Assembly (NCBI GenBank): GCA_963837955.1
Contig: CAWIPH010000002.1
Location: 3,162,623-3,226,622, forward strand
Origin: an uncultured Verrucomicrobiae bacterium
Lineage (GTDB): Bacteria; Verrucomicrobiota; Verrucomicrobiia; Chthoniobacterales; JAFAMB01
Length of the DNA stretch: 64,000 bases
Direction: 5' to 3'
The position numbers and the translations under genes are program-made. Shown in pieces: positions 10,446 through 60,030 of this stretch (positions are counted from its first letter, which is position 1; each line of letters begins with the position of its first letter). The notes beneath the pieces were generated by a model. The model worked only from the letters and a program-made list of their open reading frames with translations. It had not been told where the DNA came from and did no database searches.

Positions 10446-10529
10446 GGGTAGGTACCGAAGTGGCCAAACGGGGCAGACTGTAAATCTGCTGGCTTTACGC
10501 CTTCAGTGGTTCGAATCCACTCCTGCCCA
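10446..10529 (+). tRNA. tRNA-Tyr(GTA): tRNA-Tyr (anticodon GTA), long variable arm, CCA not encoded
   Basis: Manual cloverleaf. Acceptor GGGTAGG pairs with CCTGCCC plus discriminator A. The anticodon stem-loop is GCAGA-CTGTAAA-TCTGC. A long variable arm is present, and the T arm is AGTGG-TTCGAAT-CCACT. Confidence 0.9.
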
Positions 10530-10530
10530 T

Positions 10531-10870
10531 ACTTCGCCCCCTCGCAAGCTCGGCGGCTTCGTATGGCAAGCCATACTTTTCCCCGGCACGCCAATGACCC
10601 TTGACTGGGGCGAAGTATGCCCTTCGTAGCTCGGCGTCAGCCGAGCGTAGGAGGGCCTTCTCTCATCACTCCGTTGCGCTTTCTTCGCCGCCTCGTAAGC
10701 TCGGTGGCTTCCGACTCCGCTCAATTGTCGTACGCTCATGGAAGCGACGCCGGCTTCGTCGGACAAGTCGTATGGCAAGCCATTATCTACCTTGCCCACG
10801 GTCCGCTCTACCCATCGCAAGGCGAAGTATGCCCTTCTTAGCTCGGCGTTAGCCGAGCGCAGGAGGGCTT
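10531..10870. repeat. Cluster of short dispersed/palindromic repeats immediately 3' of tRNA-Tyr
   Basis: Two 49-nt copies match at 45/49 positions (10609-10657 and 10821-10869). Each contains the hairpin GCTCGGC-GTYA-GCCGAGC. Related units CTTCGCCSCCTCGYAAGCTCGGYGGCTTC lie at 10532-10560 and 10683-10711, with a third degenerate copy at 11571-11598. Confidence 0.65.
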
Positions 10871-11064
10871 TCCCGCAATTCCCGGGTTCGTTCGGATCGA
10901 CTCGGCTATTTCGCTTTCTAGCTCGCCGTCCGTAGTCTCGCTGCATTTTTATTCAGGCCGTCTTCTTTTCGATGCGAATCCCCGCAAAGAACGCGTCCGA
11001 AGCTACGCCAAATATATACAACAGAAATAGATTGTGTATTATTAAGTGCCGTGGACGACTCTAA

Positions 11065-18238: not shown

Positions 18239-19932
18239 TCCCGCAGGGATCCAATGAAAGTACCCCAGCAATTCATTGCTGGGGTTAGATTAAAAAGTTG
18301 CGCCCGTCCCGAAGGGGCTTGTCGGACTTTTCAATTGGGTAGCAGATCTGGTAAAAAGGTGGATGCCAGAGCGATATGTAGTCATTGATCGGCAGACGCC
18401 GATGTTGTTGCCGGTCGATTTGCGAGATTGGGTGGCAAAGGATGATTTGGCGCGCTTGATAGCGGAGGCGGTCGATCAATGCGATCTACGGCTAGCTTGT
18501 ACCAATGAGCGGGGTAGCGGTAGTGCGCAGTATCCGCCTGGAATGATGTTGGGCTTACTGATTTACGCTTATGCGCGAGGAGTATTTTCTTCCCGGCGCA
18601 TCGAACAACTCAGTTACGAAAGCCTTTCGGTGCGTTACTTGTGTGGCAACACCCATCCGGATCACGATACCATCGCGAAGTTTCGGCGAGAGAACGGAGC
18701 GTTATTTCGAGAGTGTTTCCGTAGCGTGTTATTGTTGGCGCGGGAATTAGGATTGGTTCGAGTGGGCAAGCTAGCAGTGGATGGAACGCGACTGGAAGCC
18801 AACGCCAATCGCCATCGCTTCAGCACGCGGGAGCAATTAGAGCAAGAAAGGGCTCGAGTCGAAGAGCTCATTAGCGAGCTGATCCAACGAGGGGAAGCGG
18901 CTGATCAAGCTGAAGAGGGCGAAGCAGAGACTGAAGGCTTGCCAGCGGAGTTAGCCGATGGGCAAAAGCGCCGTAAGGCCATCAAAGAAGCTCTAGAGCG
19001 CATCAAGCAACGAGAAGCCCAGCAGCAAGCCGAAAAAGAGCAATTAGCCCAGAGCGGTCGTCAGAGCCAGGCCAAGGAGGTACGGATGAATTTGACCGAT
19101 CCAGACTGTGGGATCTTACACCGTAAAGGGGCAGGTACAGTCATTGGCTATAACGCCCAAATTGGAGTCGATATCCAAGGTGCAGGCCTGATTGTGACTA
19201 ATGCCGTCAGTGCCAAAGGGGGCGACGCGGAGTTATTGAACCAAGTCCTTGAGCAGCTCGCTCCCGAGTTAGGAGCAGTAAAGGAAGTGGTCGTCGATTG
19301 TGGCTATGAGAGCGGACCCAAAGCCTATGAGCTGGAAAAGAGCCTTGGCACCAAAGTCTATTATCCTCCCCGTCCGATCCAAGTCAGTGCTAGTGGACCA
19401 AAACATCGCAACAGCCATAGGCAACGCTTGGCGCGACACATGCGTTATTTAATCAAAAAACGCATCGAGTCCCCCCACGGACAGTGGTTGCAACGTCGGC
19501 GCCAAACGGTAGCTGAGGGTGCTTTTGGTTTTATCAAACGCGCGTTGGGCTTTCAGCGCTTCAGTCTACGCGGCTTGCAAAAAGTTCAGACCGAATGGCA
19601 ACTAGTCTGCTTGGCCTTTAACCTGCGCAAACTGGCCTAAAGAAAACAAAAAGGCTCTGCACCTACCCGCAGCTCCCTTCGCGGAAAATTACGGCTTACC
19701 TCAAAGCTGATCGCAATCCTCCCCTTTACCGTCTCCCTTCCGCCAAAAAAAAGCGGAAAAAACATCACGAAGTCCGACGGCCCCCGAAGGGACGATCGAA
19801 ACGTTCAGTTATTGGCCTCCCATTGTGACTTTAGCGCAAGCGGTGATCGATCGTCCCTTGCGGGACGGACACGTTTTCATAAACTTACCCAGCAATAAAT
19901 TGCTGGGCTACTTTCATTGGGTCCCTGCGGGA
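18239..19932 (+). mobile_element. IS1182/IS5-type insertion sequence with long imperfect terminal inverted repeats
   Basis: A transposase ORF flanked by an ~80-bp imperfect inverted repeat. Left arm 18240-18320: CCCGCAGGGATCCAATGAAAGTACCCCAGCAATTCATTGCTGGGG... Its reverse-complement partner is at 19851-19931. An inner 25-bp inverted repeat is also present (18305-18329 CGTCCCGAAGGGGCTTGTCGGACTT; 19771-19795 AAGTCCGACGGCCCCCGAAGGGACG). No clear target-site duplication was seen, so the exact ends are uncertain. Confidence 0.6.
18363..19640 (+). CDS. IS1182/IS5-family DDE transposase
   Basis: 425-aa ORF. The N-terminal block (QTPMLLPVDLRDWVAKDDLARLI...YPPGMMLGLLIYAY) is typical of the InsH-N-type domain. 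This is followed by a coiled Glu/Gln-rich linker and a C-terminal DDE region (VVDCGYES...AEGAFGFIKRALGFQRFSLRGL). Confidence 0.9.
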   Translation: MPERYVVIDRQTPMLLPVDLRDWVAKDDLARLIAEAVDQCDLRLACTNERGSGSAQYPPGMMLGLLIYAYARGVFSSRRIEQLSYESLSVRYLCGNTHPDHDTIAKFRRENGALFRECFRSVLLLARELGLVRVGKLAVDGTRLEANANRHRFSTREQLEQERARVEELISELIQRGEAADQAEEGEAETEGLPAELADGQKRRKAIKEALERIKQREAQQQAEKEQLAQSGRQSQAKEVRMNLTDPDCGILHRKGAGTVIGYNAQIGVDIQGAGLIVTNAVSAKGGDAELLNQVLEQLAPELGAVKEVVVDCGYESGPKAYELEKSLGTKVYYPPRPIQVSASGPKHRNSHRQRLARHMRYLIKKRIESPHGQWLQRRRQTVAEGAFGFIKRALGFQRFSLRGLQKVQTEWQLVCLAFNLRKLA

Positions 19933-34531: not shown

Positions 34532-34813
34532 ATGATCAAACCATCCAAAGCACTTATTGCCGGTGCAGCTATCGCCGGTCTTCTTACCGGTTCAGTGGCC
34601 GCTCGAGCTTATGCGGCGAGCACCACTCCGAGCAAGGCGGGCGTTGCTATCCAAACGTTAGACGCCGAAAAGGGCAAGCATGCTTGCAAAGGCAAGAATA
34701 GCTGTAAAGGACAAGGCGGCTGCAAAACTGGCGACAATAGTTGCAAGGGTAAGAACTCTTGCAAGGGCAAAGGCGGCTGCGCGACCGACGGCAGCAAACC
34801 CCCGAAGGCTTAA
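34532..34813 (+). CDS. Sec-signal, 6-Cys Lys/Gly-rich small protein; candidate bufferin-type (BufA2-like) RiPP precursor
   Basis: 93-aa ORF with signal peptide MIKPSKALIAGAAIAGLLTGSVAARAYA. The core has two tandem copies of C-K-G-K-N-S-C-K-G-x-G-G-C (HACKGKNSCKGQGGCKTGDNSCKGKNSCKGKGGCATDG), giving six Cys in total. It is followed by a strong hairpin. A DoxX gene and a DUF692/DUF2063 pair lie nearby. Confidence 0.7.
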   Translation: MIKPSKALIAGAAIAGLLTGSVAARAYAASTTPSKAGVAIQTLDAEKGKHACKGKNSCKGQGGCKTGDNSCKGKNSCKGKGGCATDGSKPPKA

Positions 34814-34830
34814 TAACTACCTACTCTGAT

Positions 34831-34869
34831 AAGGTTCCCCTGCTGATCAGAATCAGTATGGGGAACCTT
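34831..34869 (+). terminator. Stem-loop immediately downstream of the Cys-rich precursor gene (possible terminator/attenuator)
   Basis: A perfect 10-bp stem, AAGGTTCCCC (34831-34840) with GGGGAACCTT (34860-34869). Additional inner pairing is CTGAT/ATCAG. The following tract is only weakly T-rich (CTATTTCC). Confidence 0.45.
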
Positions 34870-35078
34870 CTATTTCCAGCTTGGATTTGGCCGTCCCTGA
34901 CAGGTCAATTCAGATAAAGAATTGACGGTTGAATATTCGGCTAAACCGTGTCCTGTCCCGCCTCTCCAATTTCGAGAGCGGTGCGCCAGATCCGAAATTT
35001 CTAGTTCGTTTGGAATCGTCGAGTGCTGTTCTGTCTCTACTGAGTGTCTAAAATCCAAACAACTAGCCTAGCCTCAAC

Positions 35079-35582
35079 ATGAATCCTTTCATCCAATCGG
35101 TGGCCGATAAATATCGACTGCTGGTCTCTCTGCTCAATTCTTTGCAGGCGCCATTTCTCCTGATATTAAGAGTCTATTTCTTCTGGCAGCTGTTCCTGGC
35201 CGGCAAAGGCAAGCTTCTTAACATCGCAAAAGTCTCGGAGTTCTTCGCGAGCCTTGGAATCCCGCTGCCCACTCTGAATGCCTACTTCATAGGCTCGCTC
35301 GAATGTTTCGGTAGCTTGTTGCTGATTGTCGGCTTGGCGTCGCGACCTCTGGCTCTTTTGATCGTGGTTGCGATGATTGTCGCCTACCTAACGGCTGATA
35401 TTGAGTCCGTGACCAAATTGTTCAGCTTTTACCCACATCCGCATCAGTTTTTTAAGGCAGCTCCATTCCCTTTTTTGCTCGCCGCGCTGGTCATTCTGGC
35501 GTTTGGTCCAGGAAAGATCTCTCTCGATGCCATCATCGCAAAATGGTTTTGCCAAAAGAGGGGGTCTCTGTCAGAGCAGTAA
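35079..35582 (+). CDS. DoxX family membrane protein
   Basis: 167-aa ORF with four hydrophobic helices and the DoxX-like pattern LLILRVYFFWQLFLAGKGKL ... FIGSLECFGSLLLIVGLASRPLALLIVVAMIVAY. Confidence 0.85.
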   Translation: MNPFIQSVADKYRLLVSLLNSLQAPFLLILRVYFFWQLFLAGKGKLLNIAKVSEFFASLGIPLPTLNAYFIGSLECFGSLLLIVGLASRPLALLIVVAMIVAYLTADIESVTKLFSFYPHPHQFFKAAPFPFLLAALVILAFGPGKISLDAIIAKWFCQKRGSLSEQ

Positions 35583-35612
35583 AGACTCCCCGATCGAGCA
35601 AGTCAAAGGCCC

Positions 35613-36398
35613 ATGTTGCTTAAGACAGAACGAAAACGGCCCGAAGAGTGGTCACTTCATCGCGCTAAGGCTAAGCAAAGCTGGATGGTGCCGTTCCTGG
35701 CTTTCGAGTGGGTCTGGGAGTGGCTGGCCTACTGGCTTAGCGGCTGGGCGTTCATTGAAGTGCTGGAATACGTTCAAACGCTGGGGATAATGGTTGCGAT
35801 CATCTTTTATTTTGCCGATAGCGGAAATCGAACCAAGCAAAAGAACTATCAAGCTTGGCAGGTCATCAACACCGCTCAGGGCAAAGGAGGCAGCGGCGGC
35901 CGAGTCGAAGCTTTAGAAGAGCTTCTCCAAGACAAGGTCTCTTTGGTTGGACTGGATGTTAGCGACGCATACTTGTTCAGGGTGCGCCTTGATAAAGCGC
36001 GCTTAGATCGAAGCAACTTTCATGGCACGGACGCCCGGGGTGGAAGCTTCGAGAAAGCGAAAATGGAATCTTCCGATTTCACTTCAGCCAATGTACGGGG
36101 CGGCAACTTTGCCAAGGCAGATCTAAGAAATGCGGTTCTCAAGGACGCAGATTTAATGGGAGCTAATCTCACTGAGGCGGATCTTGGGGGCGCGGACCTC
36201 AGTCGAGTGGATCTACGGGACGCTGACTTGCGCGGGGTCAAATGGAAAGACATTCGAACCATCAAATTGGCCAACGTTTACGGTGTCCGTAACGCTCCGG
36301 ATGGCTTTCTCAGTTGGGCCCTGGGCCAGGGCGCTGTTGCCATAGAAAGCGATAGGGACTGGTATGCCAAGCTGAATGAGGAACCGGCTGAACAATGA
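35613..36398 (+). CDS. Membrane-anchored pentapeptide-repeat protein
   Basis: 261-aa ORF with two N-terminal hydrophobic helices. These are followed by a long run of A(D/N)LxX pentapeptide repeats (ANVRGGNFAKADLRNAVLKDADLMGANLTEADLGGADLSRVDLRDADLRG). Confidence 0.85.
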   Translation: MLLKTERKRPEEWSLHRAKAKQSWMVPFLAFEWVWEWLAYWLSGWAFIEVLEYVQTLGIMVAIIFYFADSGNRTKQKNYQAWQVINTAQGKGGSGGRVEALEELLQDKVSLVGLDVSDAYLFRVRLDKARLDRSNFHGTDARGGSFEKAKMESSDFTSANVRGGNFAKADLRNAVLKDADLMGANLTEADLGGADLSRVDLRDADLRGVKWKDIRTIKLANVYGVRNAPDGFLSWALGQGAVAIESDRDWYAKLNEEPAEQ

Positions 36399-36434
36399 TT
36401 CGGACGCGTCTCCAACTCGGCCGGCCGCGGACAA

Positions 36435-36649
36435 GTAGCCTGATGCTTCCTCCTTCGTTCCCTCAACCCCAAAACTACGGCGGACAAGCCAGCCTCAGGG
36501 AACACCTTAGTGATTGGTGAATAGTGATTAGATTAGTGAGAGGGCGGTGGGAGAATTTCTCCGAGGATTTGCCGATAGGCTCCACCAATCACTGCTCACT
36601 TCTCACAATGGCTCCGCCCTGGGTTCCTGAGCCAAGAGGATCAGGCTAC
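36435..36649. repeat. Palindromic intergenic repeat element, copy A (MITE/REP-like)
   Basis: Right arm CCTGAGCCAAGAGGATCAGGCTAC at 36626-36649. The left arm starts GTAGCCTGATGCTTCC (36435-) and is split from its CCAGCCTCAGGG part (36489-36500) by ~40 nt. Inner inverted repeats are GTGATTGGTG (36510-36519) and CACCAATCAC (36584-36593). Confidence 0.65.
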
Positions 36650-36913
36650 ACAATTACAAACGGACGCGCGGGCCGCCTTCGCAACTACGGCGCGCCCTAG
36701 CGTTGAGGTTGAGAAACACCGTAGAACCGCCCGCGACGAAGCGTTTCGCGTAGTCGGGAGCGCGTCCCTACCTTATTCGGATTCCGCAAGCATCGCTCGA
36801 CCACGATTCTTCGCATCATCATGGAATAATCTGTATAGTCCTTCCATCTTAACACTGACGCACGGAGATTTCTCCCTTACCTGAAAATCAACGAGCAACC
36901 CGATCGCGATTTT

Positions 36914-37771
36914 ATGCCAGCAAATCCATTCAACGGTTATACTGAATACGGTATCGGCATCGGCCTACGGGTACCACATTACCGGCACATTCTAGCCAAG
37001 AAGCCGGTAGTAGACTGGTTCGAGATCATTTCCGAGAACTTCATGGTCGATGGGGGTCGACCACTTGAAGTGCTGGATCAGATTTTGGAACAGTACCGCG
37101 TCGTCCAACATGGGGTCGCAATCTACTTTGGTTCGGCCGATAAATTTGATCGAGAACACCTCAAGCGGCTGAAACGACTCGTCAAATACACCCAGACGCC
37201 TTGGCTTTCGGATCATCTTTGTTGGGGAAGCGTCGACGGCCGATACACCCACGATTTGTTGCCGATGCCCTACACCTTCGCCGTCGCGCGGCATACCGCC
37301 CAAAAAATCCGTGAAGCTCGCGATTATCTTGAGGTGCCGATTTGCGTCGAGAATGTCAGCAGTTACGCCGAGTATCATCTTTCCGAAATGACCGAATGGG
37401 AATTTCTCTCAGAGGTGGTTGAGCAAGCAGATTGTGGAATCTTGCTGGATGTAAACAACATTTATGTCTCCTCTCAGAACCATAATTTCAATCCCTACGA
37501 CTACCTAAATAATGTCCCCCACTCCCGAGTGGGCCAAATCCATATCGCCGGCCATTCAAAGTTTGAGAAATACATCCTCGACACGCACGATCACCCGGTT
37601 TTGGATCCGGTTTGGCAGATGTACGCTCACGCGGTCAAGCTTTGCGGAAACACCGCGACACTTCTTGAGTGGGACGATCGAATCCCGACATTTGAGGAAG
37701 TTCACAATGAAGCGCTCAAAGCCAACCAATTCAAAGACAATGTCGTCGCAAGTTCCCAAGCGAATAAATAG
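36914..37771 (+). CDS. DUF692 / MNIO (multinuclear non-heme iron oxidative enzyme; MbnB/TglH/BufB-like) family protein
   Basis: 285-aa ORF with GIGLRVPHYRHIL, DWFEIISENFM, WLSDHLCW, VENVSSY, LLDVNNIYVS and IHIAGH...DTHDHPV. These are the conserved TIM-barrel metal-ligand blocks of UPF0276/DUF692. Confidence 0.9.
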   Translation: MPANPFNGYTEYGIGIGLRVPHYRHILAKKPVVDWFEIISENFMVDGGRPLEVLDQILEQYRVVQHGVAIYFGSADKFDREHLKRLKRLVKYTQTPWLSDHLCWGSVDGRYTHDLLPMPYTFAVARHTAQKIREARDYLEVPICVENVSSYAEYHLSEMTEWEFLSEVVEQADCGILLDVNNIYVSSQNHNFNPYDYLNNVPHSRVGQIHIAGHSKFEKYILDTHDHPVLDPVWQMYAHAVKLCGNTATLLEWDDRIPTFEEVHNEALKANQFKDNVVASSQANK

Positions 37772-38669
37772 TCGGGAAGAATTACTCGAGTTGCAGCGCG
37801 CGATGGCCGGCGCGCTTTTTCGACCGCTGACCGATGACTGGAATATGCAGAGCGAGTCGAGTGACGGCCGCTCGATGCAGGATTTCGCTGCCGAGTTCAT
37901 TAAGCCAAACGACCGCCTGAGTTCCTTTGACCGCCTCGAGATCTACAATCGGCAATATTGGTTTCGGATCCTCGATTGCCTTTATGACGACTATCCCGGG
38001 CTTCTCGCCGTTGTCGGTGAAGAAAAATTTCTAAAGCTGGCCACCGCCTACCTAACAAAGTATCAGTCTGAATCCTACACACTGCGGAACCTAGGGGATC
38101 GCCTCGAAAAATTTCTTCGAGACGAGCCGCATTGGGCCGATCCAAACAACGCGTGCGCGATCGATATGGCACGATTCGAGTGGGCCCAGGTCGTCGCATT
38201 CGACGGACCATCGAAGCCGGTGGTCACGCCAGACGAATTAATTGACGGCTCGTCCGAAGGGCTGCGATTGGGCCTGCAACCTTATTTATCAATTCTTAAG
38301 CTCGATTACCCGGTCGACGATTTGCTTATCGCAGTAAAAAAAGACGCCGATTCTCTGCGTGGGGAGGCTAGCAATGCAGTCAACGCTGCTCCAACCAACA
38401 AGGGCGAAACGGCCCAAGTCCAGCTACCCGAACCCGAAGTAACCTATCTCGCGGTCCACCGATTCGACAACATGATCTATTTCAAACGGCTCGAACCGGA
38501 AGGCTACGTTATGCTGGAAGCGCTAGCTGCCGGATCCACCTTGGAGGACGCATGCCTCAAAGCGGTGGAACAAAGCACTCGGACAGATGTGGATTGGCAA
38601 GCGCTCATTAAGGAGTGGTTCGACAATTGGGCAGCCTTGGGTTGGTTCTGTAGTCCCAAAGTAACCTGA
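37740..38669 (+). CDS. DUF2063 family protein (MNIO partner, BufC/MbnC-position)
   Basis: The track ORF starts at 37512, but that would overlap the DUF692 gene by 260 nt. ATG at 37740 (MSSQVPKR...) or 37707 gives a ~310-320-aa protein overlapping the DUF692 stop by 32-65 nt. N-terminal LQRAMAGALFRP and the gene's position match DUF2063 partners of DUF692. Confidence 0.75.
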   Translation: MSSQVPKRINSREELLELQRAMAGALFRPLTDDWNMQSESSDGRSMQDFAAEFIKPNDRLSSFDRLEIYNRQYWFRILDCLYDDYPGLLAVVGEEKFLKLATAYLTKYQSESYTLRNLGDRLEKFLRDEPHWADPNNACAIDMARFEWAQVVAFDGPSKPVVTPDELIDGSSEGLRLGLQPYLSILKLDYPVDDLLIAVKKDADSLRGEASNAVNAAPTNKGETAQVQLPEPEVTYLAVHRFDNMIYFKRLEPEGYVMLEALAAGSTLEDACLKAVEQSTRTDVDWQALIKEWFDNWAALGWFCSPKVT

Positions 38670-38836
38670 TGCTCGTCGTTCTACCGAGAAAGATTGTGAG
38701 AGGTGATCGGTGAATGGTGGATGCCTGTCGGCAAATTCTCGGCGTAGATCTCCCCGCCGCCAATCACCAATCACCAATCACCAATCACCAATCACTGATC
38801 ACTGATACGCACCCTGAGGCTGGAGCATCAGGCTAC
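38661..38836. repeat. Palindromic intergenic repeat element, copy B (MITE/REP-like)
   Basis: Right arm CCTGAGGCTGGAGCATCAGGCTAC at 38813-38836, identical to copy C. The degenerate left arm GTAACCTGATGCTCG starts at 38661 and overlaps the DUF2063 stop. The inner part has GTGAGAGGTGATCGGTGAATGGTGG opposed to a CAATCAC tandem array. Confidence 0.65.
38761..38806. repeat. Heptanucleotide tandem repeat (CAATCAC)x5 followed by TGATCAC and a truncated TGAT unit
   Basis: Direct reading shows CAATCAC five times (38761-38795). This is followed by TGATCAC and then TGATACG. Inverted partial copies (GTGATTGGTGAATAGTGATTAGATTAGTGAG) occur in copy A at 36509-36539. Confidence 0.85.
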
Positions 38837-38850
38837 TCAGGACGGCCGTC

Positions 38851-39564
38851 CTAGTATTTGTCGTGATAGCGCACCCACGCCTGCGTGAAATCTAATCCGG
38901 CCTCGTCCCGGCCTTTGGGGACCAAATCAAGGTAATTGTAGGCCGCATTCAGCACATCTATCCCGCGGGCGTAAGAGGAATAGGTGTGGAATATATTTCC
39001 AAATCCATCCTTGTAGAAAACGCTGGTTCCCGGCAATTCCGGCGAATCGGTCTTGTGCCTGCCGTAATTGTAATAAACCTCTTTCTTTAGGTCCTCCTGC
39101 GTAAACGATACGTGGTAGTCGTAGTTGAAATCGTTCTTCAAGGATGATAGCCACCTGAAACTCCACCCCATCCGCTTCTTGAACGTTTCCAGCTTTTCCA
39201 ATGGAGCACGGGAAATCGCAACCATGGTCACATCACGGTGATTGAGATGTACGCCGATGCCATTAAAACTGTCGGCCCAAAATGAACAGGACGGACACCC
39301 TTCAGGCCAATCCGGGTCAAACATGAAATGGTAGACAACCAGTTGACTTCTTCCCTCAAAGAGATCCGCCAGGGTCTCCTTTCCCTTTGGACCCTCGAAG
39401 ACGTATTCCTTTTCCACTTTTATCCAGGGCAACTCTCTTCGTTGCTGGCTCAGCTGATCTCGCAGCCGGGTGAACTCTTTCTCTTTGGCCAGAAGGCCCT
39501 TGCGGGCTTCAAGCCATTCTGTTTGCGAAACTACTTTATGTTTTTTGGGGGGTATTTCTGTCAT
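38851..39564 (-). CDS. DUF899 family thioredoxin-fold protein
   Basis: 237-aa ORF with WLEARKGLLAKEKEFTRLRDQLSQQRRELPW, LVVYHFMFDPDWPEGCPSCSFWADSFNG and VSFT...YNY, the typical DUF899 pattern. Confidence 0.9.
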   Translation of the reverse strand: MTEIPPKKHKVVSQTEWLEARKGLLAKEKEFTRLRDQLSQQRRELPWIKVEKEYVFEGPKGKETLADLFEGRSQLVVYHFMFDPDWPEGCPSCSFWADSFNGIGVHLNHRDVTMVAISRAPLEKLETFKKRMGWSFRWLSSLKNDFNYDYHVSFTQEDLKKEVYYNYGRHKTDSPELPGTSVFYKDGFGNIFHTYSSYARGIDVLNAAYNYLDLVPKGRDEAGLDFTQAWVRYHDKY

Positions 39565-39615
39565 ACAATGTCTCCGGTTGTTTGGGAGATTTCCGAACCA
39601 ATCGTGTAAGCGGGA

Positions 39616-40032
39616 TCATCCAGCTTCCTGCGTTTCCACCAACTGAGTCAGCCGTTTCAAGAAACGGTCTCCCCACCCCTGTTCGTACTTTTCGAAAATG
39701 TCCGTTTCGTGCGGTGGCAATCCTTCCCAGCCGGAATGCGTCAAAATTAGTTTAGTGTGTTGGCCGAGTTGCGAGAGCGCGAAGGCGACGAGTGTCTCAG
39801 GTTTGGCGCCCGCAGCTTTAAAGCTATAGACTAACCTTTCACAGGGAATGACTTCTCGCACCACACAGTAAATCGTTCCTTGTTCTTCGCATCGAAGTGT
39901 GAAGTCCTTTCCGACGCAGGCTTCAAAATCTGTCGGCAGAAACCAAGTGGCGATCTTCTTCGGATCGGTGAGATGTTGCCATACTTTCTCAACCGGAGCT
40001 TTGATAGTGATTTCCTTGCGGATGATCCTCAT
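39616..40032 (-). CDS. SRPBCC (AHSA1/START-like) domain protein, paralog 3
   Basis: 138-aa ORF with ITIKAPVEKVWQHLTDPKKIATWF ... LTHSGWEG. It overlaps the upstream ArsR stop by 4 nt, the same arrangement as at 21.5 kb. Confidence 0.85.
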   Translation of the reverse strand: MRIIRKEITIKAPVEKVWQHLTDPKKIATWFLPTDFEACVGKDFTLRCEEQGTIYCVVREVIPCERLVYSFKAAGAKPETLVAFALSQLGQHTKLILTHSGWEGLPPHETDIFEKYEQGWGDRFLKRLTQLVETQEAG

Positions 40033-40394
40033 GGCTCCTGTTCCACCTGCTTTTTGAGATTTTCCAATTTCTCATCCCAGAACGCTTCAAACTTCGACAG
40101 CCAGCCTCGAACCGTTTTGAGTGGAGCCGGATTAAGCGTTTGGATCCGCTCGCGGCCGCGCCGGCGAACAGTGATCAACTTGGCCGTGCGCAGTACCCGC
40201 AGATGTTTGATGACGGCAGGCCGGCTCATGGCGAACTGTTCCGCGATTCGACCGACTGGCTGCTCTCCCCGAGCAAGCATATCGAGAATGAGTCTGCGAT
40301 TCGGGTCAGCGATCGACAAAAAAATGCGGTCTTGCCGGGGAGTGCACTTGGAGTGACCCAATACCATAAGATCACTGCCAATATGTAACTCCAA
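40029..40394 (-). CDS. ArsR/SmtB family transcriptional regulator
   Basis: 121-aa ORF with IADPNRRLILDMLARGEQPVGRIAEQFAMSRPAVIKHLRVLRTAKLI, the ArsR HTH region. Confidence 0.9.
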   Translation of the reverse strand: MELHIGSDLMVLGHSKCTPRQDRIFLSIADPNRRLILDMLARGEQPVGRIAEQFAMSRPAVIKHLRVLRTAKLITVRRRGRERIQTLNPAPLKTVRGWLSKFEAFWDEKLENLKKQVEQEP

Positions 40395-40482
40395 GGTTAC
40401 ATGTCAAATGACGAAAGTTACGTATCGAAGTTGCGTCTAAAAGACAGGCTCCCGTCCAATCTCAGATCGCGACCACCACGGC

Positions 40483-40594
40483 GTAGCCTGATCCTCCTGG
40501 CTCAGGAATCCATGGCGTTATGAGTCCGTAAGACCCTCTACGTGCACTATTCGAGCCGGCAGCGAGGTTCCCTGAGGCTGGAGCATCAGGCTAC
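40483..40594. repeat. Palindromic intergenic repeat element, copy C (minimal form)
   Basis: Left arm GTAGCCTGATCCTCCTGGCTCAGG (40483-40506) and right arm CCTGAGGCTGGAGCATCAGGCTAC (40571-40594) are inverted. They are separated by a 64-nt spacer. The right arm overlaps the stop codon of the 40591..41523 gene. Confidence 0.7.
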
Positions 40595-41523
40595 TGCCCG
40601 GTCGTGATCGCGCGGCGAACGGACGCCAATGGAGCGCTATCGTCGAAACGCACTGTTTTCCCATTCGATATCACTCCGAGTTGTTTCCAGAGGGCATTCA
40701 GATCGGGTGTTACTGGCTTTGCCCTCCATTCGTTGTAAAGCTCTGTTAAGACCGGAACTCCAGTGGCTTTGTCACCCGTCGCCAACAAGTCGGTTAGTTC
40801 TGCTTCTGTCTGGATGTTGCCGTTCTTTTCCAGGATTGCTCGCACGGCGTCTTCCAGACCCTTCTGATTGCGGGTGCGGCGCCGGATCTCAACATCGGCG
40901 TAAAGGCAGAACATGGCTCCTCCCCAGTAGGTGCGACCCCAAGTCGGCGTGTAATCCAGACCGCGATCGCCGGTTTTGGGAAGGCCGTTCGGCATGCCAT
41001 CAACCATGTCTCCCCAAATTTTCTCCGGCGATAATTGGCCAACTCGCGTCCTGGCAATCGGCTCAACGTAGGTGGCCAACCCTTCTTCGATCCAATGATG
41101 CTTTTCGGCCACCGAAGGCAGCGCGAGATGCACCATTTCGTGGGTCATGATCCAATCATCGTCGAATTGCACAGCAGTGTTATTTCGACCTACGGCGATT
41201 TCAATTCGCGCACCTTTCCAGCCCGAAGCGTGCCCGTTGTCTACACCCCATCGACTGCGAAGATTCACCGTGATGTTGACCATGGAAACGGGATATCTTC
41301 GGTAGTAAGCGCTCACTGCCGTTGCTGCTTTGGTAATCCAGACTTGAATGGCCTGCTTCAGCGGATCAGCCGGAGGCGTTGAAAACGATACTTGAATAAT
41401 TGAACCCGCGGACTTGAGCGTGATTCCGCTGTTCGAAGTTTGGCTGTGCATTGGTGCACCCGAGCAAGTGAAAATCAGAACCAGGCTCGTTGTGATGATA
41501 CAACTCCGAGCTGCAATACGCAT
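40591..41523 (-). CDS. Secreted HExxH zinc metallopeptidase (gluzincin-like)
   Basis: 310-aa ORF with a signal-like N-terminus (MRIAARSCIITTSLVLIFTCSGAP). IMTHEMVHLALPSVAEKHHWIEEGLATYVE contains HExxH plus a downstream Glu, as in M1/M61-type peptidases. Confidence 0.65.
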   Translation of the reverse strand: MRIAARSCIITTSLVLIFTCSGAPMHSQTSNSGITLKSAGSIIQVSFSTPPADPLKQAIQVWITKAATAVSAYYRRYPVSMVNITVNLRSRWGVDNGHASGWKGARIEIAVGRNNTAVQFDDDWIMTHEMVHLALPSVAEKHHWIEEGLATYVEPIARTRVGQLSPEKIWGDMVDGMPNGLPKTGDRGLDYTPTWGRTYWGGAMFCLYADVEIRRRTRNQKGLEDAVRAILEKNGNIQTEAELTDLLATGDKATGVPVLTELYNEWRAKPVTPDLNALWKQLGVISNGKTVRFDDSAPLASVRRAITTGQ

Positions 41524-56860: not shown

Positions 56861-56995
56861 TGCGCCGATCGTGTGCGACGACAATCGGCGAGACCAAAGG
56901 AAGCATTTGCGGGCTTGCACCCGCTCTCTGACGAACGCTACAACGTGTCCCATCATGTGGGATGCGTAGAGCTTTCTTATGACCAATACAATCAA

Positions 56996-58357
56996 ATGAA
57001 AAAAAGTCGCGGTGTCACCGCTCGATCGATTCTCGTTGGGCTTTCCTTGATTACATGTTTCAGCGACTGCGCGATCCTACAGAGCCGATCGGCGAGGGAG
57101 ACTCGCGATCGCGCGTTCATTGTTTATTGGCCTCCTCCGAAGGAAAGCAAAGGGTTGCGCCTGGCAGTCAAAGATCTCATCGACATGAAGGGCGTGGTGA
57201 CCACGGCCGGCTCCGAATATGTTGCTAAGACCAGTCTAGCCGCTTCACGTGATGCGCAGTGCCTGGCGATAGCACGGCGGCGAAACGTGCAGATCGTAGG
57301 AAAAACGAATCTCAGTGAATTTGCAGTGGCCCCTTCCGGGATCAACGATTTCTTCGGAACTCCCAGGAGCCCCTTGAGCAAGAAGAGCAAGATTATCCCG
57401 GGAGGTTCATCCAGCGGTTCAGCGGTGGCGGTCGCAAGCGGACTGGCGGACGTTGCTTTTGGAACGGATACAGCCGGCTCCATCCGCGTACCCGCAGCTT
57501 GTTGCGGCATCGTCGGTCTGAAGACGACGTTTGGCCTTGTTTCTTTGCGGGGCGTGTTTCCAGTTGAGCCAAAGCATCTGGATACGGTCGGTCCGATGGC
57601 CAAAGACGTGGCTCATGTTGTCGAAGGGATGGACCTTTTGCAGGACGGGTTTGCGGCACGATACCGAGCAGCGGTGGCTGCTAAACCGTTGGCAAAAAAC
57701 ATCAGAATCGGGCGACTCTACCTGGGTGGCACCGACCCTAAGATCGACAAAGCGATTGATGACGCTCTAGCCCGGGCAGGCTTTCGAGTGGTCCCACTGG
57801 ACCAAGCCTTCAAGGCGAAGTGGGACCAGGCTAAGAGAGATGGGGACACGGTGGCGGCAGCCGGCGTTCGGATCAGCGATGGAAAATTCTTCGACAAATT
57901 AATAGGAGTAAGCGCCAGGACCAAGGCAATAATCGCCTTGGGTGAATTCGATTACAGGACGAGCTACCAGAAAGCTCTACGGAGGCAAGCGGCGTGGCAG
58001 CAGGCCCTTCGTCAAGTCTTTAAGAAGGTTGATTTCATTGCTCTACCGACTCTTCAGAAGCTGCCGCCAAGGATTCCGCCCATCGCCAAAACCGTCCTTT
58101 TGGAAGCGCAAATAGCCCTTTTTGAAGCAGAAATGTTGGGCGCGCAAAACACCGTTGCTGTGAATTTTGCTGGAAATCCTGCGCTGGCGATACCGATTCC
58201 GTTGGATGATAAGACTATTCCCTCAACTAGCGTGCAGCTGGTCGGGCCGCGTCTGAGCGAAGCCGAACTTCTCAATGCGGGCCGCCTGATCGAGGCCGAG
58301 CCGCAACCTGGTCGACACGTCATGACAACGAAATATGCGACATCCGTTTCTCGCTGA
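56996..58357 (+). CDS. Amidase-signature (AS) family amidase, lipoprotein, paralog 1
   Basis: The start was moved to MKKSRGVTARSILVGLSLITC, a lipobox-like sequence. Features are the catalytic Lys in LAVKDLIDMKG, the AS motif IPGGSSSGSAVAV, and the nucleophile region GTDTAGSIRVPAACCG. Confidence 0.85.
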   Translation: MKKSRGVTARSILVGLSLITCFSDCAILQSRSARETRDRAFIVYWPPPKESKGLRLAVKDLIDMKGVVTTAGSEYVAKTSLAASRDAQCLAIARRRNVQIVGKTNLSEFAVAPSGINDFFGTPRSPLSKKSKIIPGGSSSGSAVAVASGLADVAFGTDTAGSIRVPAACCGIVGLKTTFGLVSLRGVFPVEPKHLDTVGPMAKDVAHVVEGMDLLQDGFAARYRAAVAAKPLAKNIRIGRLYLGGTDPKIDKAIDDALARAGFRVVPLDQAFKAKWDQAKRDGDTVAAAGVRISDGKFFDKLIGVSARTKAIIALGEFDYRTSYQKALRRQAAWQQALRQVFKKVDFIALPTLQKLPPRIPPIAKTVLLEAQIALFEAEMLGAQNTVAVNFAGNPALAIPIPLDDKTIPSTSVQLVGPRLSEAELLNAGRLIEAEPQPGRHVMTTKYATSVSR

Positions 58358-58462
58358 GGATGTCTCTGTCGCACCACGCGCGGCACCGACCATGAGGAGC
58401 GTTACCACGTGTCCCTTTTCCGCCAGGAGCGAGGAGCCCTTCGTGATAATCATAAAAGTAAA

Positions 58463-59794
58463 ATGAAAAAAAATCGCTTTGTCGCCGCTCCATTGATTTC
58501 GGTGGGGTTCTTGTCGATCATCTTTTTGAGCGGCTGCGTGTCTCTGTTTACACGTCCAGCAAGTCAGACTGGCAATCACGCGTTCATCGTTTACTGGCCA
58601 CCTCCGAATGACAGTAAGGAATTGCGCCTCGCGGTGAAAGATGTCATTGACGTCAAAGGCGTTGTGACCACAGCCGGCTCGGAATATTTCGCCAAGACCC
58701 GCTCGCCGGCTACCGTTGATGCCAAGTGCGTAGCGACAGCGCGAGAGCGAGGCGTGCGGATTGTCGGGAAAACCAATCTCAGCGAGTTTGCGGTTGCTCC
58801 CTCCGGCTTCAACGAATATTTCGGAATTCCTCAGAATCGCTTGAGCAAGAGGCTCAAGCTTATCCCGGGAGGTTCGTCCAGCGGTTCCGCAGTAGCGGTC
58901 CAAAGTGGCATGGCAGACGTCGCCTATGGAACCGATACAGCAGGCTCCGTCCGGGTTCCGGCAGCTTGTTGCGGCATCGTTGGCTTGAAGACGACCTTCG
59001 GCCTTGTTTCCTTGAATGGCGTCCTCCCGGTTGAACCGACGCACCTCGACACCGTCGGCCCGATGGCCAAAGATGTGGACCACGTGGTACAAGGAATGGA
59101 CCTGTTACAGAATGGGTTTGCCGAACGATACAGAAAAGTTGTTGCATCCAGACCTTCGGCCAAACAAATCAGAATAGGGCGGCTCTACTTGAGCGGCACT
59201 GACGCTAAAGTCGACAAAGCGGTTGATTACGCTCTGGCCCAAGCAGAATTTCAAGTCATCTCGCTTGACCAAGCATTTAAGGCGAAGTGGGAACAGGCCA
59301 AGAAGGACGGAGATACTTTGGCAGCGGCTGGCGCCTGGCTTAGCTATCGAAAATACTTTGGCAAACTAGGAGTAAGCGCCAAGACCGAGGCGATAATTGC
59401 TCTAGGTGAATACGAGCACACGACGAACTACCAGAACGCCCTGAAGAGGCAAGCGGAGTGGCAATCTGCCCTCCGTCAAGTCTTCCAAAAGGTGGATTTC
59501 ATCGCTCTGCCCACCCTGCAGTCCCTGCCTCCAGCGAGTCCTCCCCTTGGGAGTACTGCTCTTTTTGAAGCAAGAATGTTGGTTCTACAAAATACTGTTC
59601 CCGTGAATCTTGCCGGAAATCCTGCTCTTGCCGTACCGATTCCAGAGGATGACAGGGTAATTCCCCTCACCAGCCTGCAGCTGGTTGGACCCCGATTGAG
59701 CGAAGCGGAACTTCTCAATGCGGGCCACTTGGTTGAGACTGCCGTGAACGCACCGACCGCCGAACGTCGAGTCGCGATACCACGCAAGCCATAG
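58463..59794 (+). CDS. Amidase-signature (AS) family amidase, lipoprotein, paralog 2
   Basis: The start was moved to MKKNRFVAAPLISVGFLSIIFLSGC, which has a lipobox. It is collinear with paralog 1, with long identical runs (GKTNLSEFAVAPSG, IPGGSSSGSAVAV, RVPAACCGIVGLKTTFGLVSL, LDTVGPMAKDV). Confidence 0.85.
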   Translation: MKKNRFVAAPLISVGFLSIIFLSGCVSLFTRPASQTGNHAFIVYWPPPNDSKELRLAVKDVIDVKGVVTTAGSEYFAKTRSPATVDAKCVATARERGVRIVGKTNLSEFAVAPSGFNEYFGIPQNRLSKRLKLIPGGSSSGSAVAVQSGMADVAYGTDTAGSVRVPAACCGIVGLKTTFGLVSLNGVLPVEPTHLDTVGPMAKDVDHVVQGMDLLQNGFAERYRKVVASRPSAKQIRIGRLYLSGTDAKVDKAVDYALAQAEFQVISLDQAFKAKWEQAKKDGDTLAAAGAWLSYRKYFGKLGVSAKTEAIIALGEYEHTTNYQNALKRQAEWQSALRQVFQKVDFIALPTLQSLPPASPPLGSTALFEARMLVLQNTVPVNLAGNPALAVPIPEDDRVIPLTSLQLVGPRLSEAELLNAGHLVETAVNAPTAERRVAIPRKP

Positions 59795-59820
59795 GATGTC
59801 CTTCTCGGCAAACGCCGGTC

Positions 59821-59874
59821 GGTCCCCCGTTGAGCGAAGCGGAACTCCTCAATGCGGGCCGCCTGGTTGAGGCA
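59821..59874 (+). pseudogene. Remnant 3' fragment of a third amidase copy
   Basis: GGTCCCCCGTTGAGCGAAGCGGAACTCCTCAATGCGGGCCGCCTGGTTGAGGCA encodes GPPLSEAELLNAGRLVEA. This matches the C-terminal VGPRLSEAELLNAG(R/H)L(I/V)E of both intact amidases (nt ~58243-58296 and ~59692-59745). No upstream ORF is attached to it. Confidence 0.6.
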
Positions 59875-60030
59875 AAGCGCTCACAGCTTGATCGACGCGT
59901 TAGAGCCCCCGAAATCCGCGCTAACTAAAAACTCCGCATGCGGGCGCGGTTTCGAGTTGCCGATGCGAACTTCGCGGCTAGAATGACACTCACCAGCGGT
60001 ACATTTTGCACCATCGAGTTGCAAAAAGCG

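Follow-up and report, generated by a model that had tools for sequence, protein, structure and literature searches.

A 64,000-nucleotide stretch (hereafter the window) of contig CAWIPH010000002.1, from an uncultured Verrucomicrobiae bacterium of the Chthoniobacterales, carries three palindromic elements, A, B, and C. These are very probably three independent copies of one GTAG-type repetitive extragenic palindrome (REP) family, arranged in inverted doublets, also called head-to-head (HH) dimers or REPINs. The three share an architecture and belong to a single family, which is dispersed among related genomes and linked there to genes for the Y1/HUH transposase RayT; relative to relatives that lack them at orthologous sites, the elements are insertions. 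Judged from sequence, the structural features that define GTAG REPs and REPINs are found in them, and dispersal and RayT linkage are seen in relatives. The class of bacterial repeats is a known one and the family is new within it; we came across no earlier description of its sequence, GTAG-CCTGATSCTCCNGSCTCAGG.

Architecture of the three elements

Each element has the outer bounds GTAGCCTGAT...ATCAGGCTAC. Element A (36435-36649, 215 nt) is a long-form REPIN, an HH dimer with GTAG ends outward, in the spacer between a pentapeptide-repeat protein gene and an MNIO gene; element B (38661-38836, 176 nt) is a second long-form REPIN, in the gap between convergent DUF2063 and DUF899 genes; and element C (40483-40594, 112 nt) is a short-form REPIN between the gene for a 310-aa protein and an ArsR promoter. 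The original prediction, made by a model from the letters of the window, had pointed to a repeated 24-mer and to loci built of inverted arms around a variable spacer of 64 to ~130 nt, and we find both as described. The 24-mer, CCTGAGGCTGGAGCATCAGGCTAC, occurs exactly at 38813-38836 and 40571-40594, inverted with three mismatches at 40483-40506, and with four differing positions at 36626-36649, and has no match in 100 shuffles. Its terminal 10-mer ATCAGGCTAC or the complement stands at six of six ends (36435, 36640, 38661, 38827, 40483, and 40585), with one mismatch at 38661. The spacer measures 64 nt in C and about 125-128 nt in A and B. No further arm of the family, at up to five mismatches, was found in the remaining ~60 kb of the window, whose copies therefore amount to six arms, all inside 4.2 kb.

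The copies starting at 36435 and 38661, which had been noted as split or degenerate, are an arm with a loop insertion and a half arm, respectively. The A-left REP (36435-36499, plus strand) reads GTAGCCTGATGCT, then a 41-nt insertion (36448-36488), then CCAGCCTCAGG; it is a complete arm in which the insertion sits exactly in the tetraloop of the hairpin. The same insertion is present in L041 (loci fetched for this analysis are numbered with an L), a homologous element of another genome, and this loop-insertion variant is therefore old. The A core (36501-36625) holds heptamer-like repeats, TTAGTGA x5 at 36507-36539, which pair with CACCAATCAC...CTCAC at 36583-36610 around a central loop; it is kept in L002, L021, L041, and L079, and element A as a whole is homologous end to end to L041 3-224. 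The A-right REP (36626-36649, minus strand) is of the second of two arm flavors, CCTGAGCCAAGAGGATCAGGCTAC.

The B-left half REP (38661-38674, plus strand), GTAACCTGATGCTC, retains only the first 14 nt of an arm, and its GTAACC is a point mutation of the GTAGCC that persists in L105, a 98%-identical contig in which element B is also present. The B core holds tandem heptamers at 38760-38806, a perfect (CCAATCA)x5 array plus (ATCACTG)x2, pairing with GTGATCGGTGAATGGTG at 38703-38719, and the B-right REP (38813-38836, minus strand) is a consensus flavor 1 arm. The inner GTGATTGGTG/CACCAATCAC inverted repeats that had been read as common to A and B are indeed shared. In element C the left REP (40483-40506, plus strand) is of flavor 2 and the right REP (40571-40594, minus strand) of flavor 1. 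Folding, one of the checks set in advance, gives each element a long hairpin on either strand that is more stable than those of shuffled controls (z -2.0 to -6.7, the lowest value being that of the minus strand of B).

A GTAG head followed by an imperfect palindrome

The 24-nt arm consists of an unpaired GTAG and then a 20-nt imperfect palindrome, CCTGA-T-GC-TCCA-GC-C-TCAGG (written in the other orientation), in which 5 bp and a further 2 bp, separated by a 1x1 mismatch, form the stem below a tetraloop. The two flavors, GATGCTCCAGCC and GATCCTCCTGGC, adopt the same fold (ViennaRNA, DNA parameters) and differ by a compensatory swap from G-C to C-G in the inner stem. Both swap positions were N in our scans of sequence collections; over 58 distinct loci, the inner-stem pair is GC in 35, CG in 20, TG in two, and CA in one. 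Across 42 distinct arms, 87% of cells pair, as against 19-45% with slid partners. T2 and G4 of the GTAG head are invariant in the arm alignment and G1 and A3 are kept in at least 90%, and the tetranucleotide is also carried by partner arms that were found via proximity. The commonest arm variant is a 26-mer (41 of 145 arms).

Dispersal among Chthoniobacterales and soil metagenomes

We ran a degenerate search pattern, CCTGAGNNNNGAGNATCAGGCTAC, on a species-representative genome set and on soil metagenome contigs. The genome set yielded seven loci, all in metagenome-assembled genomes (MAGs) of the Verrucomicrobiota/Chthoniobacterales, six of them on separate contigs of one MAG. In the soil metagenomes, 91 contig stretches match, which reduce to 58 distinct loci once orthologous ones are merged. 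The loci from both collections come from genomes other than that of the window, with which they have no megablast-level overlap. Arms lie in gaps of ordinary housekeeping genes such as gatCA and acs. Doublets occur at 22 distinct loci, among them 18 distinct short forms with GTAG ends outward and total lengths of 97-156 nt, which could be aligned: arms and a ~4-nt extension are conserved, and spacers are weakly conserved with weak motifs in common. Element C aligns with the 17 others. Among the long forms, the homology of A to L041 and of B to L018 runs through the core, and many seeming solo arms are long forms with a heptamer core and a decayed partner; solo arms and head-to-tail tandem arrays also occur. 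Element A is nearer to copies in other genomes than to B, and likewise B than to A; the two are therefore not local duplicates.

The flanks of these elements bear on whether they are classical miniature inverted-repeat transposable elements (MITEs), internally deleted derivatives of a DDE transposon that an insertion sequence (IS) transposase moves by their terminal inverted repeats. A length of about 110-215 nt and terminal inverted repeats of 24-35 nt would suit such elements, and the window does contain an IS1182-family transposase gene. However, in aligned flanks inspected by eye neither the 18 short forms nor A, B, and C have flanking direct repeats or a target-site duplication, and next to GTAG...CTAC the bases are mildly biased, to A ahead of GTAG and to T behind CTAC, with otherwise no conserved flanking target. 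Each terminal repeat, moreover, is palindromic in its own right and carries a GTAG; transposon ends do not form solo arms or head-to-tail arrays; and the sole transposase that these arms were found to enclose is of the Y1/HUH type. We consider a MITE origin highly improbable. The assignment "REP/BIME- or MITE-like" in the original prediction thus stands in its first part (GTAG palindromes in inverted doublets, dispersed, and flanking RayT in relatives; BIME, bacterial interspersed mosaic element) and is not supported in its second, there being neither a target-site duplication nor an autonomous partner with these ends. Two further candidates were also rejected: the IS1182 of the window as autonomous partner, as its ends are unrelated and it sits inside a different repeat, and the L028 and L063 arms ~2 kb apart as ends of a larger transposon, as they enclose gatCA, a dehydrogenase, and similar genes and no transposase.

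Linkage to RayT and a possible mechanism of spread

A screen of all fetched loci for an HUH...Y motif returned one intact gene (L026) and one truncated gene (L097). The L026 protein (192 aa, motifs HVHVL...YIRDNP) reaches 38 bits against Pfam Y1_Tnp (cut-off 23); of the NCBIfam models, "REP-associated tyrosine transposase" fits it best, with 70.5 bits as against 27.6 bits for IS200, and it matches the structure of Escherichia coli TnpA-REP (PDB 4er8) with E = 6e-5. A REP of the A/B/C family lies upstream of this RayT-type gene, and a doublet and one more REP lie on its downstream side. At the orthologous locus, L097, a 5'-truncated RayT copy (a pseudogene) is accompanied by five arms. Another contig (L108 1-1150) encodes a RayT 78% identical to that of L026; at least six REPs stand head to tail before this gene, one every 40 nt, and a degenerate doublet comes after it. 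An 88%-identical homolog (P0242 contig) lies upstream of uvrA, as does the L026 gene. Most homologs carry the Joint Genome Institute (JGI) label "REP element-mobilizing transposase RayT". The L108 contig, which comes from the same sample as L106, also has a group II intron reverse transcriptase beyond its degenerate doublet.

This linkage agrees with what is known of the class. GTAG REPs have been described in the Verrucomicrobia and the wider Planctomycetes-Verrucomicrobia-Chlamydiae (PVC) superphylum, among others (Di Nocera et al., 2013, PMC3733652); they form homo- and heterodimers of HH type, with GTAG outside and spacers that are 20-100 nt long or structured, lie downstream of open reading frames (ORFs), donate TAG stops, occur in mixed clusters, and flank RayT genes (PMC3733652). 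Binding and cleavage by TnpA-REP need a 5' GTAG plus an imperfect hairpin (Messing et al., 2012, PMC3479197). By analogy with the E. coli enzyme, a single-copy RayT encoded elsewhere in the genome would bind the hairpin and GTAG in single-stranded DNA, and would cut and rejoin DNA so as to spread doublets to permissive intergenic sites without target duplication. Copies would then persist at gene 3' ends because they do little harm there. In the long forms A and B the spacer is structured and conserved and bears variable heptamer arrays.

Several observations weigh against this reading. No RayT/Y1 gene lies within the 64-kb window, and we infer from the relatives that one is present in its genome and mobilized A, B, and C. 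The 70.5 bits of the L026 protein fall below the NCBIfam equivalog cut-off of 80. The strict pattern finds one to six copies per MAG, making the family moderately, not highly, abundant. Covariation is seen at one stem pair only, essentially between two lineages, and is undemonstrable past that pair because the scan pattern held most arm positions fixed (positions 7-10 and 14 being unbiased). A single arm, folded as DNA, forms a weak hairpin (-4 to -6 kcal/mol; z -1.1 to -2.8). Even scatter would also be expected of dispersed repeats, and three elements in 4.2 kb depart from uniform placement with p ~0.012, a post hoc value; the plasticity of the region, described below, explains this clustering only in part.

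Three known systems come close to these elements. As in the GTAG REP superfamily, including the families of Opitutus terrae (PMC3733652), an unpaired GTAG marks one end of the stem-loop, the stem and loop fall within the reported 5-13 bp and 2-20 nt, and HH homo- or heterodimers downstream of ORFs, TAG stops, mixed clusters, and flanked RayT genes all recur; by contrast, the A/B/C family has no Rfam entry, a short and interrupted stem, a long-form subfamily with a conserved spacer and variable (CAATCAC)n arrays, and insertions of 40-90 nt in the loops of some arms. As in the REPIN-RAYT systems of Pseudomonas and Enterobacteria (Bertels and Rainey, 2011, PMC3116915; PMC3337134), a pair of inverted REPs with its spacer behaves as a single unit of replication, singlets look like doublets that have decayed, and the Y1 transposase is REP-flanked at a conserved chromosomal position (upstream of uvrA in L026 and the P0242 contig), whereas here the copy number, estimated from relatives, appears to be tens and not hundreds, the RayT falls in a PVC-type clade whose N-terminal region is longer, and spacers show greater length and variability. 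The Y and Z REPs of E. coli BIMEs likewise come as two flavors that differ in the stem and stand in inverted pairs, with a GTAG guide tetranucleotide 5' of an imperfect hairpin and an HUH plus Tyr enzyme to which that of L026 is similar (PDB 4ER8, PMC3479197). The E. coli REP stem is longer, at about 12 bp, and BIME linkers hold IHF and gyrase sites. There is also a resemblance to the ends of IS200/IS605 elements and to palindrome-associated transposable elements (PATEs), which also have subterminal imperfect hairpins recognized as single-stranded DNA by a Y1 HUH enzyme and no target duplication; in IS200/IS605 elements, however, the left end differs from the right, and insertion takes place on the 3' side of a fixed four- or five-nucleotide motif, whereas the A/B/C elements have identical GTAG hairpins in inverted orientation.

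Elements at gene 3' ends and donated stop codons

Elements A, B, and C each lie at gene 3' ends, and the arms of two of them overlap the stop codons of flanking genes, as had been proposed. The TGA stop of DUF2063 (38667-38669) lies inside B-left, from which the last two codons of the gene also derive: its product ends in GWFCSPKVT* in the window, and in GWFCRR* or GWFCRPD* in relatives. In C-right it is the GTAG that gives the 310-aa gene its TAG stop (minus strand, 40591-40593). Final codons and stops of these two genes are therefore repeat-derived. This is a general property of the family, in which an arm ends an ORF of at least 80 codons, with TAG or TGA, at 16 of the 58 loci. Entered from the head, GTAGCCTGA stops two of three frames, with a TAG or TGA within 9 nt, and the element therefore often becomes the stop codon of a neighboring gene.

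A position at 3' ends, together with long hairpins that are stable on both strands, could also mean that the elements are cis-acting RNA or DNA signals that the host has selected and kept for their function, as terminators, stabilizers of mRNA 3' ends, or protein sites of the kind bound by IHF or gyrase in BIMEs. Such roles have been ascribed to some REPs (PMC3733652), and A follows the stop codon of the pentapeptide gene and precedes a conserved promoter-like stretch that lies ahead of MNIO. Yet no arm is followed by a U-tract; a promoter and terminator scan found fewer terminator-like sites than in shuffles and none on A, B, or C, the only one nearby (38839-38852) being outside B. Over 36300-40800 there was no Rfam match, either at gathering thresholds or at E <= 1. 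Spacers are poorly conserved, the elements have no fixed orientation relative to transcription, they are absent at orthologous sites of relatives that keep the same operon, and their physical linkage to RayT points to a mobile origin. We regard selected cis-acting signals as an improbable origin of these elements, and on the REPIN reading transcripts would be affected only secondarily, if at all, for instance through protection by a 3' hairpin or through insulation of bufA2-doxX-PRP (PRP, pentapeptide-repeat protein) from MNIO-DUF2063. The site at 38839-38852 is a small GC hairpin, AGGACGGCCGTCCT plus AGTATTTG, which overlaps the DUF899 stop codon.

Gene context and synteny

The elements are set in and beside a bufferin-like ribosomally synthesized and post-translationally modified peptide (RiPP) operon (34532-38669), whose plus-strand genes encode a BufA2-like precursor (34532-34813; NCBIfam 41.5 bits, below cut-off), DoxX (35079-35582), the pentapeptide-repeat protein (35613-36398), MNIO (DUF692; 36914-37771), and DUF2063 (to 38669). 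On the minus strand follow DUF899, SRPBCC, and ArsR (38851-40394) and the 310-aa protein, which has no Pfam match (40591-41523). The gene order of the operon is unusual and is conserved in relatives: L099, L100-102, and L103/104, whose DUF2063 is 82-84% identical, retain the order precursor-DoxX-pentapeptide-MNIO-DUF2063, and no arm of the A/B/C family occurs anywhere on these contigs. Their pentapeptide-MNIO spacer measures 55-208 nt, as against 516 nt in the window, and element A is missing from it in L099, L100, and L103. Since relatives keep the order without the elements, A is an insertion and no rearrangement scar: together with the adjacent REP of a second family (36662-36771), it appears from synteny as a lineage-specific insertion into an intact, ancestrally ordered operon. 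This comparison, also a check set in advance and one in which four relatives show the order with no such element, refutes the proposal that the elements mediated a rearrangement that split the RiPP locus. Homologs of bufA2 in L039, L056, and L065 have no MNIO nearby and are hence uninformative for synteny. L100 conserves a stretch of about 110 nt ahead of MNIO, within which lies a promoter-like site (36810-36839).

The downstream side differs. The 310-aa gene is the usual neighbor of DUF2063, being adjacent but inverted in L103/L104 and separated from it by TonB_C and a small ORF in L099; in the window the two are separated by an ArsR-SRPBCC-DUF899 cassette that lies between B and C. In L106 what links the 310-aa gene with DUF899 is a half REP together with this same promoter of ArsR type, and in L099 element C is absent after the orthologous 310-aa stop codon (this downstream junction was read by hand, a three-way MAFFT alignment being poor). 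Compared across these contigs, B and C lie at a synteny-variable, plastic junction.

B and C might on this evidence be agents of gene shuffling, in which recombination from REP to REP, whether homologous or by RayT strand transfer, inserted or exchanged the ArsR-SRPBCC-DUF899 cassette. The cassette lies exactly between B and C and parts a conserved pair of neighbors; B-right and C-right form a perfect 26-nt direct repeat that flanks it; a half REP stands at the junction of the 310-aa gene and DUF899 in L106 also; and three copies are clustered in 4.2 kb. However, that 26-nt repeat is merely the commonest arm variant; relatives have rearranged the same junction without family arms (L099 has the TonB_C insert, L103 is inverted there, and L100 carries other genes); a test for foreign origin finds no compositional anomaly in the cassette; and A and B, each with closer copies in other genomes, are not local duplicates. 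REPs build up wherever intergenic DNA is permissive, and co-location with breakpoints is therefore expected without causation. Because relatives rearranged without REPs, the repeat is commonplace, composition is normal, and A and B are non-local, cassette exchange mediated by REPs is possible but unsupported, and we think it unlikely. The earlier statement that the elements sit "exactly at the module boundaries" is true but largely trivial, as REPs live in intergenic gaps at gene 3' ends.

The region has two further features. A promoter-like site at 40380-40407 (minus strand) overlaps an inverted repeat, TTGACATGTAACCTTGGAGTTACATATT, which is probably the ArsR operator. In L106 (4718-4830) the ArsR-type promoter is fused straight to DUF899, with arsR and SRPBCC missing and the junction at a TTACA microhomology.

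Implications for annotation and for REPIN biology

In annotation, A, B, and C should be masked as REP/REPIN repeats and not called as small ORFs, small RNAs, or terminators; the bufferin-like operon can be taken as intact and its gene order as ancestral. REPIN biology has so far been studied mostly in Pseudomonas and Enterobacteria, and the present elements add a REPIN-RayT family from uncultured soil Verrucomicrobiota, an under-studied phylum. Their long forms, with variable heptamer arrays and loop insertions, are convenient markers for strain typing and could help in studying the growth of REP clusters such as BIME-like mosaics.

Other repeats in the window

The second GTAG-REP family lies beside A as part of a mosaic cluster (36662-36771, minus strand; GTAG-GGACGCGC...GCGCGTCC) and has a ~90-nt loop insertion; its compact 28-nt form adjoins family-1 REPs in L012, L041, and L052. 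The ~90-nt insertion resembles a third palindrome, CCCGCCCGC...CTACGCGACAGCG...GCGGGCGGG, which recurs within REP loops of L006, L024, L037, and L046; L100 also has it, in its pentapeptide-MNIO spacer. A fourth GTAG/CTAC-tagged palindrome, CCCAGCAATnnATTGCTGGG, makes up a 45-nt inverted repeat (18239-19932) around the IS1182-family transposase gene (18363-19640; NCBIfam 318 bits). The same doublet occurs in L046 (740-1040) with a ~150-nt spacer and no IS, and the IS1182 therefore seems to have inserted into a REP-type doublet. A broader proposal would join such nesting to the cassette, with REPINs as recombination substrates for cassettes and REP hairpin loops as hot spots for small nested palindromes and an IS; we hold it to be speculative and unlikely.

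Downstream of a tRNA (10446-10529), the interval 10530-10877 holds two 57-nt repeats (89% identical) and three 26-nt repeats, which contain GTAG-CTCGGCG-TCA-GCCGAG, another GTAG-tagged palindrome family. At 56972-59878 there are diverged direct repeats of 180-300 nt, 70-77% identical and about 1.45 kb apart, which suggests tandem paralogous genes.

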